DNA from: a virus
Lineage: Duplodnaviria; Heunggongvirae; Uroviricota; Caudoviricetes
Strand: one strand, 5' to 3'
DNA: 34,976 bases
IMG/VR virus record: IMGVR_UViG_3300027721_000009
Location: 64,001-98,976 of that record
Shown: one piece after another, positions 2,304-5,174 of the stretch
How positions within the stretch are numbered: position 1 is the stretch's first letter
Layout: each line of letters begins with the position of its first letter
Position numbers and translations under genes: made by a program
Notes under the pieces: model-generated
The model's database searches: none
Told to the model about the DNA's origin: nothing
Seen by the model: only the letters and a program-made list of their open reading frames with translations

Positions 2304-2453
2304 ATGGAATACGTAAGCACAGCATTAGCAGTATTGGTAGTTCTTGCATTTGGATACTTCATCTACAAGAAAGTCACTGCGCCTAAGAAGCCTTCAACCG
2401 GCACTGGCGGCGGTGGAGTCGGCGGCAGCGATAGCAACACTCAGCAGCACTAA
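2304..2453 (+). CDS. 49-aa single-pass membrane protein with Gly-rich tail
   Basis: RBS gagga upstream; MEYVSTALAVLVVLAFGYFIYKK hydrophobic helix then basic residues and PSTGTGGGGVGG. Confidence 0.7.
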   Translation: MEYVSTALAVLVVLAFGYFIYKKVTAPKKPSTGTGGGGVGGSDSNTQQH

Positions 2454-3277
2454 TGATTGTTGACGACTCTGCGGGTCCGCAGAAAGCTTGGGCGAATTAT
2501 AGAATGGAACTGCGAGAAGAAATTCAGCGGCGCGAGTATCCTAGGAAACTAGCCGAAGTGGGCAGAGTCGCATTGGTCTGTATTGCGAAGGATGAAGATG
2601 ACTACATTCAGGAGTGGATTGACTATCACTTCAAGTTGGGTGTAGACGATATCTTCATCTATGAAAATGATTGGCGGTCTGGCATCTGGCAGGAACGAGT
2701 ACACACGATTCCGTTTGACGGCAAACACCGTCAGGTCTATGCGTACAACGACTTCCTGTTTCGGCGTGCGAATGATTACAAGTGGGCAATCTTCATTGAC
2801 GTTGACGAGTTCATCGTATTGAAGAACCACTCGTACATTCAGGGATTCCTGCGAGCCTATGGCAATCTCCCCGAAGGCGTGGATGCGATTGCGGTGAACT
2901 GGATGATGTTCGGTGACAATGGCGCAGCCAGTGAGGGTTCCGTAGTGGAACGATTCACACGGCGCGGCGCGATTCCCGAAAGGCACATCAAGAGCATCGT
3001 GCGGCTGAATGGCGACCGAATGATGTTGACAACGCACAACACGTTCGGCTACTGGATAGACCCGAATGGTAATATCGGAGCAGGACAGAATAATTTTGAC
3101 GGTAGCAATGATGTGATTCAGATCAATCATTACTACACTAAGACAGAGAAAGAGTTTGAACGAAAGATGAATCGCGGCAGGGCTGACTGTGGATTGCGTC
3201 GGACAAAGGACGATTTCCACCAATTCAATCAGAACGAAGTTGAAGACCTAACAGCACTCAACTTCTACAGGGGATAA
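2453..3277 (+). CDS. Glycosyltransferase, GT-A fold (GT2-like/GT92 family)
   Basis: VALVCIAKDEDDYIQEWIDYHFKLGVDDIFIYEN, DxD motif IFIDVDEFI, NWMMFGDNG, KSIVR, INHYYTK. Confidence 0.85.
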   Translation: MIVDDSAGPQKAWANYRMELREEIQRREYPRKLAEVGRVALVCIAKDEDDYIQEWIDYHFKLGVDDIFIYENDWRSGIWQERVHTIPFDGKHRQVYAYNDFLFRRANDYKWAIFIDVDEFIVLKNHSYIQGFLRAYGNLPEGVDAIAVNWMMFGDNGAASEGSVVERFTRRGAIPERHIKSIVRLNGDRMMLTTHNTFGYWIDPNGNIGAGQNNFDGSNDVIQINHYYTKTEKEFERKMNRGRADCGLRRTKDDFHQFNQNEVEDLTALNFYRG

Positions 3278-3278
3278 C

Positions 3279-3515
3279 ATGGAAACGACAGTATCAGAAG
3301 ACACTCGCTACATGAGCCGCAAGTTTCGGTTCTCTGTGGCGGCATGGATCGCAGGCACGATTGCGTATGCGACAGGGTTCTTCACCGAGGTTCCCATGAT
3401 GACGACGGACCAGTGGATTCTGTTCACGCAATGGATCGTCGGTCTGTACCTCGCAGGCAACGTCGGTGACACACTCGTTACCGGTCTAGCCAACGTATTC
3501 ACGGTGAAGTCATGA
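3279..3515 (+). CDS. Small two-TM membrane protein (holin-like)
   Basis: SRKFRFSVAAWIAGTIAYATGFF and WILFTQWIVGLYLAGNVG form two hydrophobic segments. Confidence 0.55.
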   Translation: METTVSEDTRYMSRKFRFSVAAWIAGTIAYATGFFTEVPMMTTDQWILFTQWIVGLYLAGNVGDTLVTGLANVFTVKS

Positions 3516-3997
3516 GCCTCTTCAAGAACCCTTGGCAAGCGGTCATTGCCATCGTCATCTTCATCAGTCTCTTCCTGTTTCTATTAAGTCGGGAAGCGCG
3601 AAGTGAAGAAATCTACTTCGACGGCGGTTCAACCATCGTGCGCGGATATGCTCCGGTCATCGGAATCAATGTCGCGTGGAAGGAAGAAGGTCCGAAGAAG
3701 ACTGACTACGAATTAGGATTCAAGCTTATCGGTGAATCTGAGTTCAAGGAAGAGGATCAGAGCAATCAGTTTGTCGTTCACGGCATGTTGGTTGACGGAT
3801 ACAAGAATGCGGAAATGGGAATCGGGTTTGCCTACTTCAACGTAGAATCAGACTACAATTGCCAGTTCACATTCTCGTTGCTTGCGCGTTATCGGTTCAC
3901 GGAACGGATTCACGTACAGGCTCACCACTTCTCTACCGCAGGGTCATGTCGCCCGAATTATGGCAGAGATTTACTCACCGTAGGATGGAGGTTCTAA
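3512..3997 (+). CDS. pagL: PagL-like outer-membrane beta-barrel (lipid A 3-O-deacylase family)
   Basis: Signal peptide (...FLLSREARS/EE), about eight amphipathic strands, C-terminal ...VGWRF, motif HFSTAGSCRPNYGRD aligning with PagL HYSNAGLKQPNDGIE. Confidence 0.75.
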   Translation: MSLFKNPWQAVIAIVIFISLFLFLLSREARSEEIYFDGGSTIVRGYAPVIGINVAWKEEGPKKTDYELGFKLIGESEFKEEDQSNQFVVHGMLVDGYKNAEMGIGFAYFNVESDYNCQFTFSLLARYRFTERIHVQAHHFSTAGSCRPNYGRDLLTVGWRF

Positions 3998-3998
3998 G

Positions 3999-4109
3999 AT
4001 GGAACTATTACTAGGATTTGTCGCAGGCGCATTGGTGGGATGGCACTTCCCGCAGCCTGCATGGGTTAAGACTCTGATTGCGGCAGTGAAAGCCAAGCTA
4101 GCGGAGTAA
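3999..4109 (+). CDS. 36-aa membrane peptide
   Basis: RBS ggagg; MELLLGFVAGALVGWHFPQPAWVKTLIAAVKAKLAE; not in the ORF track. Confidence 0.65.
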   Translation: MELLLGFVAGALVGWHFPQPAWVKTLIAAVKAKLAE

Positions 4110-4111
4110 TC

Positions 4112-4428
4112 GGTTATAGTGGTATGATGTGAAGTGAAGGTATTCTGGACGCGGGTTCGACTCCCGCCTGCTCCACCACGAAAGACTCTCACCCGAGATG
4201 CGCAGAAGTTGAGTTCTTACTGCGATACAAGGGAACAACACTCTGAGAGTCTTTCGTAATGGGGCAGTCAAGGTTTCGACAGGGTAAGATAGCGGAACGG
4301 ACCACTAGAGAGGCGACTGACTTAATCAGCGCAAACACTACAAATGCAAACGCAGATGTATACGAGGAAGTGCGCCTAGCGGCGTGACCCTCCGGGGCAG
4401 GAAATGCCTTGTTACCAAAACCACCAGA
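4112..4428 (+). ncRNA. ssrA: Circularly permuted (two-piece) tmRNA gene; outer ends approximate
   Basis: T-arm gcggg-ttcgact-cccgc (4151-4167) and ctgctcc-a-cca (4168-4178) precede the 5' end GGGGCAG (4261-4267); acceptor stem has G3.U70; tag frame ANADVYEEVRLAA* at 4346-4387. Confidence 0.9.
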
Positions 4429-4429
4429 A

Positions 4430-4456
4430 GGGGAGAGGGCAACCTCTCCCCGTCTT
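4430..4456 (+). terminator. Terminator-like hairpin after the tmRNA
   Basis: ggggagagg-GCAA-cctctcccc, 9-bp stem with a weak T tract. Confidence 0.7.
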
Positions 4457-4493
4457 TACATGATGAAAGTCGCAACACATGGAGGAAAATAAC

Positions 4494-5174
4494 ATGCGCC
4501 GACTAACGATGATGATACTTGCTATGATACTTGTGGGCTGTGCGTCAATTCCGACCTCGACACAGCAACTCTCCCAACTCCCCGACGCAACGGAAGCACT
4601 GGAAGAACTCTCATTCAGAGCCAGTCTGGAACTCTATGTGATTGAACACCAGTACGACATTGAGCGTATGCTCGCTAACATCAGTCTGGAACTTCCCGAT
4701 TTTGTGCGCGTAGCCACTGCCGAAGACCGCAAGGCTATTCAGTGCCTCGCGAAGAATATCTATTGGGAAGCCACTGGCGAACCACTGCGCGGTAAGAAAG
4801 CCGTCGCACAGGTCACTCTCAATCGCACCGAGGATGTGCGCTTTCCGGCTGATATCTGCGGTGTAGTCTACGAACGCGACAAGGTGAAGAAAGACGGGCG
4901 CATGAAGACCATCTGCCAGTTCTCATGGACTTGTATGAGCGTCAAGAACAAGACTCCGCGCCATCCGGAAGAGTGGGAACATGCGCAGGAAATCGCTGCT
5001 AAGTTTATCCTCGACGGATATCACATACCTGAATTAGACGAAGCACTGTTCTATCACGCCGACTACGTTCGCCCTAAGTGGGCTAAGAAGATGGTCAAGA
5101 TCGAAAAGATCGGGGCGCATATCTTCTACCGTGAGAAGGTCAAGCAGAATGGGATTTACTTAGCGTCCAATTGA
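4494..5174 (+). CDS. SleB/Hydrolase_2 family cell wall hydrolase with lipoprotein signal peptide
   Basis: CLAKNIYWEATGEP, VAQVTLNR, ICGVVYE, CQFSWTC, ALFYHADYVRPKWA, IGAHIFYR; start after ggagg; lipobox LVG-C. Confidence 0.88.
   Translation: MRRLTMMILAMILVGCASIPTSTQQLSQLPDATEALEELSFRASLELYVIEHQYDIERMLANISLELPDFVRVATAEDRKAIQCLAKNIYWEATGEPLRGKKAVAQVTLNRTEDVRFPADICGVVYERDKVKKDGRMKTICQFSWTCMSVKNKTPRHPEEWEHAQEIAAKFILDGYHIPELDEALFYHADYVRPKWAKKMVKIEKIGAHIFYREKVKQNGIYLASN

Follow-up and report, generated by a model that had tools for sequence, protein, structure and literature searches.

A PagL-family outer membrane protein, probably an active esterase, encoded by a T4-like phage

In the part of a review that cites Rutten 2006 (PMC4402001), PagL is said to form a barrel of eight strands, in which Ser, His and Glu constitute the triad and an Asn contributes the oxyanion hole. 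The enzyme from Pseudomonas aeruginosa (PDB 2ERV; UniProt Q9HVD1; PF09411) is an outer membrane barrel made with a signal peptide, with the active site where strands 7 and 8 reach the cell exterior. Another outer membrane lipid A deacylase, the 3'-O-deacylase LpxR (PDB 3FID), is 12-stranded and Ca2+-dependent and belongs to a family unrelated to PagL (PMC6863877). LpxR was absent from the structural and sequence matches of the phage protein described here. Among proteins encoded by phages, Lom of lambda (Ail/OmpX family) is likewise a small eight-stranded barrel.

We analyzed a gene for a PagL-like protein in a 34,976-nucleotide stretch of viral DNA (the window), which corresponds to positions 64,001 to 98,976 of the IMG/VR record IMGVR_UViG_3300027721_000009. 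The protein resembles P. aeruginosa PagL in its barrel and signal peptide, in the register of its catalytic residues (H-x-S, Asn at +10, acid at +14) and in the position of the active site on strands 7 and 8. In contrast to that enzyme, with which it is only 16-18% identical, it has a mature barrel of about 130 rather than 150 residues, Asp rather than Glu as the acid, and an extra conserved pair of cysteines (Cys117 and Cys146). Its gene, moreover, belongs to lytic-type phage genomes and is apparently transcribed from an early promoter of the phage. Unlike Lom, which is without the esterase triad, the phage PagL proteins keep the triad almost without exception.

The open reading frame, its export signal and its fold

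The PagL-family open reading frame (ORF; 3512-3997, + strand) is intact and encodes 161 amino acids followed by a stop codon. Its ATG overlaps the stop codon of the upstream ORF (ATGA). A HMMER comparison with Pfam, one of the checks proposed in the first-pass annotation of this DNA, gave a match to PagL (PF09411) of 27 bits (E 5.5e-6; profile positions 24-133 of 136), above the gathering cut-off of 23 bits, and a PF09411 scan of the phage's own genome also exceeded the cut-off. There was no significant match for the ORF in PHROGs or NCBIfam, and nothing was found in a single-sequence search of the PDB. A search of 5.8 billion proteins recovered 40 relatives at 36-88% identity, all of them metagenomic and, where they bore any name, all called hypothetical. 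With phmmer, 183 representative clusters were found at E<=1e-3 in 1.8 billion proteins. Given the Pfam E value, the score above the gathering cut-off and the number of phmmer clusters, the match to PagL is not due to chance.

Conservation was assessed in a close set, consisting of an alignment of 38 relatives, and in a wide set of 104 full-length distant relatives taken from the phmmer clusters, with a mean column identity of 20%. PF09411 was matched by 93 of the 104 distant relatives, and only one matched another family. The phmmer matches included P0109 (E 4.7e-12), a chromosomal PagL whose neighbors are cytochrome, SIR2 and MFS genes. Part of the phage clade escapes detection with the Pfam model: a PF09411 scan of a metagenome-assembled genome (MAG) bearing a fragment with a family member missed that MAG's own copy. 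Two unusual forms were also seen: an 822-amino-acid representative (P0167) with four separate PagL-like stretches, possibly a repeated form of the barrel, and a 357-amino-acid ORF on a viral contig (L064, 10317-11390, - strand) with a PagL domain at its end, possibly a fusion.

The AlphaFold2 model, built on the alignment (pLDDT 93.5, pTM 0.86), has eight long strands (residues 33-43, 48-56, 65-73, 86-97, 100-109, 119-128, 133-141 and 152-160), in agreement with the approximately eight strands initially proposed. There is a small hairpin in loop 2, and the N-terminal helix (residues 8-25) is the only helix at that end. The top Foldseek match in the PDB was PagL (E 2.7e-5), and the top matches in Swiss-Prot were the PagL proteins of Pseudomonas and Bordetella. 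Using VIA-align, the best match was 2erv_A (Z 17.9, rmsd 2.1 Å over 124 residues). The next match was OmpA (Z 15.1), and OmpA, OmpW and OprF were approximately three Z units below PagL. A profile made from the close alignment had a single match in the PDB, again 2erv_A, which was weak (E 1.1) and in exact register. Both the family search and the structure prediction thus bear out the original description of the protein as PagL-like, and we conclude that ORF 3512-3997 is a true member of the PagL family.

Small eight-stranded outer membrane proteins are common in phages, and the BFVD matches of the model were generic phage barrels. It is conceivable on these grounds that the protein is a catalytically idle barrel, structural or receptor-masking, of the type of lambda Lom and the Ail-OmpX morons, with a PagL ancestry that is only historical. 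The model can also be aligned with OmpA, OmpW and OmpX at Z 10-15, and in podophage contigs the PagL gene is just after the tail-fibre gene, in a moron-like position; in lambda, lom follows the tail-fibre gene as well. However, PagL was clearly the best structural match, and there was no Pfam match to the OmpA N-domain, OmpX/Ail/Lom or OmpW families at E<=10. Together with the lower Z scores (10-15) and the conserved esterase residues described below, this led us to reject assignment to a non-catalytic eight-stranded family.

Residues 1-31 (3512-3604, + strand) have the properties of a Sec signal peptide: one Lys, an 18-residue hydrophobic stretch and then A29-R30-S31. By inspection, the motif [AS]-R-[SGA] after the hydrophobic helix (residues 8-25) is conserved, and the small residues in the 38 relatives (A or S at -3; S, G or A at -1) conform to the signal peptidase I rule. 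Cleavage by signal peptidase I is predicted after A29-R30-S31, and the structural alignment with mature PagL (VIA-align) begins at residue 32. The signal peptide noticed earlier is therefore borne out by the N-terminal sequence and the conserved -3 and -1 residues, although the hydrophobic region is long (about 18 residues) and an uncleaved anchor is conceivable. In two 172-kb relatives the PagL ORF (protein P0020; L009, 1668-2345, and L010, 4803-5480) is called at 225 amino acids. The 64-residue N-terminal extension of P0020 includes a second hydrophobic segment; either the start was mis-called or the extension is an additional membrane anchor.

The remaining approximately 130 residues (3605-3994, + strand) constitute the mature eight-stranded outer membrane barrel, as judged from the AlphaFold2 model, Foldseek and VIA-align. 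The protein ends in GWRF, in keeping with the C-terminal WRF beta-signal noted at the outset. The terminal Phe (F161) is invariant in the close set and was found in 85 of the 104 distant relatives.

The active site, the acid position and the cysteine pair

The active-site segment, residues 139-153 (3926-3970, + strand), has the sequence HFSTAGSCRPNYGRD, the motif that was originally singled out. It extends from the end of strand 7, on the extracellular side, through loop L4 into the beginning of strand 8. In the profile alignment, H139, S141, N149 (oxyanion hole) and D153 (acid) align with H126, S128, N136 and E140 of 2erv_A in exact register, so that the spacing claimed at first (His, Ser at +2, Asn at +10, acid at +14) holds. 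H139, S141, N149, G151, R152, D153 and F161 are invariant in the alignment of 38 relatives. Conservation of the catalytic residues, also part of the first-pass annotation, extends to the wide set, where His is present in 103, Ser in 103 and Asn in 102 of the 104 sequences. Retention of these three residues in 102-103 of 104 sequences, in an alignment whose columns are on average 20% identical, is difficult to account for unless the protein is catalytic, and we think it quite improbable that the barrel is idle.

The acid position is more variable: in the wide set there is Asp in 90, Asn in 11 and Glu in one of the 104 sequences. PagL proteins encoded in Pseudomonadota chromosomes have the same motif and spacing, HxSNAG...PNxGx[E/D/N]; Glu and Asp both occur in them, several using Asp, and even Asn is found. 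The reported substitution of Asp for Glu is thus real but is not a peculiarity of the phage protein. Since chromosomal PagLs have both residues, Asp represents normal variation within the family. The Asn in 11 of 104 relatives tempers the case for catalysis, in that the acid may be non-essential or some members may be inactive.

Cys117 (3860-3862, + strand) is in loop L3 and Cys146 (3947-3949, + strand) is in loop L4. Both are present in 37 of the 38 close sequences, and the remaining sequence has neither. In the wide set, Cys146 is present in all 17 of the sequences that have Cys117. This co-variation supports the suggestion that the two cysteines are paired, and the putative disulfide would connect loops L3 and L4.

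Considering the fold, the export signal and the active site together, we think it likely that the ORF encodes an active PagL-type outer membrane serine esterase that a T4-like phage produces during infection of a Gram-negative host. This assessment is based on sequence and on predicted structure.

The carrier phage and the distribution of the family

The window around the PagL ORF has genes for PhoH, a PD-(D/E)XK exonuclease, gp59, gp32, a head-closure protein, gp2 and the tail tube, and also baseplate hub and wedge genes (gp5-gp8). The IMG/VR record from which it comes is 99 kb and is estimated to be 55% complete. A 65%-identical PagL in the same synteny was found on two 172-kb contigs, one of which, of 172.6 kb, is a complete genome bounded by direct terminal repeats. 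The shared order is PhoH, exonuclease, small membrane protein, PagL, two small genes, a short gap and Hydrolase_2, with gp59 and gp32 later. Both the core genes (PhoH, gp59, gp32, gp2 and gp5-gp8) and the synteny in a complete genome agree with the initial view that the carrier is a T4-like phage. The complete 172.6-kb relative also has a gene like the T4 superinfection immunity gene imm (PF14373; L001, 2007-2231), approximately 4 kb upstream of its PagL gene.

Several small membrane proteins are encoded in the same gene run as PagL. Immediately upstream, and translationally coupled to it, is a gene for a 78-amino-acid membrane protein (3279-3515, + strand) that has no Pfam or PHROG match and is present in some T4-like relatives (L005 and L007) and not in all. 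Beginning 2 nucleotides past the PagL stop codon there is a 36-amino-acid membrane peptide (3999-4109, + strand) with the motif GW..PQP.W. Peptides of 36-55 amino acids with this motif are 3' of PagL, either directly or one gene later, in T4-like relatives (L006, 5487-5606; L007, 2862-2972; L008, 5431-5541; L009, 2770-2937). We did not find the motif in L005, the closest relative, and there was no family match for the peptide. The run also has a gene for a GT-A glycosyltransferase (Glyco_tranf_2_4/GT92; 2453-3277, + strand). A glycosyltransferase gene is in the equivalent place in L008 and absent in L005-L007, and it is thus a variable cargo gene.

Approximately 0.5 kb downstream of PagL is a gene for a SleB-type cell-wall hydrolase (Pfam Hydrolase_2; 4479-5174, + strand) with an N-terminal signal and a lipobox-like LVGC. 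We searched two complete related genomes for two hydrolase families only, Hydrolase_2 and T4 lysozyme. Hydrolase_2 had one match in each genome, and the T4-lysozyme family matched only a 626-amino-acid ORF, in one of the two. Because of this pattern, the SleB-type hydrolase probably serves as the endolysin in this group of phages, and the LVGC motif indicates that it may be a secreted lipoprotein. The T4 lysozyme and Rz families had no match in the 99-kb record, a result that carries little information because the record is about 55% complete.

The interval separating the PagL operon from the hydrolase gene holds a complete permuted tmRNA in two pieces, of the betaproteobacterial type (4054-4455, + strand; Rfam beta_tmRNA 109.7 bits, tmRNA_permuted 124 bits), and tmRNA-like tag-coding stretches are in the same place in four relatives (L006-L009). 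Judged from the type of the tmRNA, the host is possibly a betaproteobacterium.

The family is widespread among viral contigs. In IMG/VR, 18 loci were identified with a pattern made from the close alignment, and a scan with the back-translated active-site motif gave another 46 stretches; an HMM recognized a family member in 43 of these. The family is therefore carried by at least 61 IMG/VR contigs (18 + 43), which are myo-, podo- and sipho-like, have a GC content of 29-64%, and reach lengths of 155 kb and more. Seven of eight distant relatives sampled were in phage contexts. Among these, P0061 adjoins a family A DNA polymerase, P0094 adjoins an Enc34-type ssDNA-binding protein, P0055 is surrounded by SU10-type structural genes, P0136 is alongside portal and S78 protease genes, P0084 is in a recombination module, and P0149 lies in a tight series of small ORFs. 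Only P0109 was clearly in a bacterial chromosome.

It seems most improbable that the ORF is an ordinary bacterial pagL in host DNA that was mis-binned with the viral contig or that lies at a prophage-host boundary. IMG/VR contigs can contain host flanks, and some of the 43 motif-matched viral contigs have bacterial-like PagLs that score only 30-49 bits. However, the ORF analyzed here has T4-like core genes on either side, its start codon overlaps the stop codon of the upstream ORF, and in a pattern scan of the species-representative genomes of GTDB (185,579) the only match to the close family was on a 4-kb MAG fragment. The same arrangement in the complete, terminally repeated 172.6-kb phage genome excludes host contamination.

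Chromosomal PagL homologs were found in 39 of 301 sampled Pseudomonadota genomes. They scored at most 47.6 bits with the phage-family profile, compared to 100-210 bits for phage copies and 171 bits for a phage-like fragment. In a phylogenetic tree, 19 chromosomal PagLs from the Pseudomonadota sample group apart, and all viral copies are in a cluster of 121 rows. The inner clade that includes our query has 22 rows (SH-aLRT 94), and T4-like and podophage copies are mixed in it, which suggests that the PagL gene has been exchanged among phages.

The separation of the phage clade from the sampled chromosomal PagLs, both in score (171 versus 47.6 bits) and in the tree, bears on the choice of substrate. 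An outer membrane esterase with the PagL fold might act on something other than the 3-O-acyl chain of lipid A, such as a different lipid A ester, an outer-leaflet phospholipid or lysophospholipid, or some other acylated envelope molecule. PagL specificity is set by loops and groove residues, and the phage protein has a shorter barrel (about 130 versus 150 residues), different loops and a clade-specific pair of cysteines. However, the four catalytic positions are all retained with exactly the same spacing, no other family matches, and we know of no PagL-family member shown to act on another substrate. We consider a different substrate unlikely, and the 3-O-acyl chain of lipid A is the preferred one.

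We found no characterized relative in phages. A tblastn search with four copies (P0001, P0061, P0109 and that of L022) against 50,697 GenBank phage records, a set that may lack those nearest to the genome of the window, gave no match, and neither did a megablast of the PagL region against GenBank phage records. Nothing relevant on phage-borne PagL was found in the literature; apparent matches were the author names Pagliai and Pagliara, and a paper on EHEC (PMC6863877) concerns LpxR and uses "phage-encoded" for the Pch regulators. These searches, of GenBank phages and of the searchable literature, are consistent with the original remark that no characterized example was known. What is new here is the phage carrier and the implied biology, not the chemistry.

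Expression and possible function during infection

There is a sigma-70 consensus promoter (1449-1477, + strand; 12/12 positions, with an extended -10) in front of the exonuclease gene, and the genes for the exonuclease, the glycosyltransferase, the 78-amino-acid protein and PagL follow it as a co-directional run. In the interval from the promoter to PagL there are two weak terminator-like sites, at 2246-2262 and, inside the PagL ORF, at 3772-3785; such sites are no more frequent than in shuffled sequence. The T4 late-promoter motif was found nowhere in the window, and we rejected a T4-type late promoter for this reason. Because the sigma-70 promoter is perfect, the terminators are weak and the T4 late motif is missing from the window, PagL is likely to be expressed early, from a host-type promoter.

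We propose the following sequence of events, which is reconstructed from the features above. The host-type early promoter would be used to transcribe the gene, leaving time for assembly and turnover. The precursor would be exported by Sec and cut after residue 31, and Cys117 and Cys146 would be oxidized in the periplasm, tying loops L3 and L4 together. The barrel of about 130 residues would then be inserted by BAM by means of its C-terminal Phe, which would bring Asn149 and the triad of His139, Ser141 and Asp153 to the end of strands 7 and 8 that lies in the outer leaflet. In this position the enzyme would remove, by hydrolysis, the 3-hydroxyacyl chain esterified to position 3 of lipid A, the substrate suggested by family membership, and lower the acyl count of the LPS of the infected cell. 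Deacylation could loosen or curve the outer membrane and so ease envelope breakdown and the shedding of vesicles as the neighboring cell-wall hydrolase acts.

More generally, phages probably remodel the host outer membrane during infection, because the PagL family recurs, unannotated, in many unrelated phages. Vesiculation, a lysis aid, superinfection exclusion and altered endotoxicity had all been put forward at first as purposes. Altered endotoxicity is without support for an environmental lytic phage. Our tentative preference, to which we give somewhat less than half of the weight, is that loosening or vesiculation of the outer membrane aids release. We favor it because expression of PagL increases vesiculation in Salmonella (PMC4958258). 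There is also some proximity to lysis genes. Within 2.5 kb of PagL in 21 non-redundant loci, Hydrolase_2 was found seven times and Peptidase_M15_4 three times, and in podophage-like contigs PagL is between the tail-fibre gene and genes for an M15 endolysin and an Rz-like spanin.

Several observations weigh against a role in lysis. The adjacency to a hydrolase gene in T4-like phages is largely shared synteny rather than a series of independent events, the promoter looks early and not late, and in the wider family PagL adjoins replication or head genes. Rz-like spanin genes (phrog_1152) are alongside PagL in two podophage contigs (L016 and L017), and because spanins coexist with PagL we rejected the idea that PagL is a substitute for a spanin.

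A second purpose, which is possible but which we hold with less conviction than aid to release, is that deacylation excludes superinfecting phages or guards progeny from adsorption to debris. Against this, the acyl chains of lipid A are buried, and we know of no precedent for lipid A deacylation in exclusion.

Known modifications of LPS by phages target its sugar part, as in O-antigen acetylation and glucosylation by seroconverting phages. If our reading is correct, PagL would represent a class of phage envelope-remodeling enzyme that acts on the lipid anchor and not on the O-antigen, and an anchor-editing enzyme encoded by a lytic phage would extend the known ways in which phages deal with the outer membrane. 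The family is large, with 183 representative clusters and at least 61 viral contigs of several phage morphotypes, and its members are called hypothetical wherever they are named. Phage PagL could account in part for outer membrane breakdown, for the release of vesicles or for exclusion where phage and host are uncultured, and a compact PagL with a putative disulfide staple may be of interest to those who engineer the acylation of lipid A in laboratory strains. We see an even chance that phages have a PagL clade of their own, which passes between myo-, podo- and siphoviruses of many Gram-negative hosts and thins the acylation of LPS in infected cells. This would be a widespread and unrecognized strategy, used either to weaken or vesiculate the outer membrane for release or to exclude competitors.
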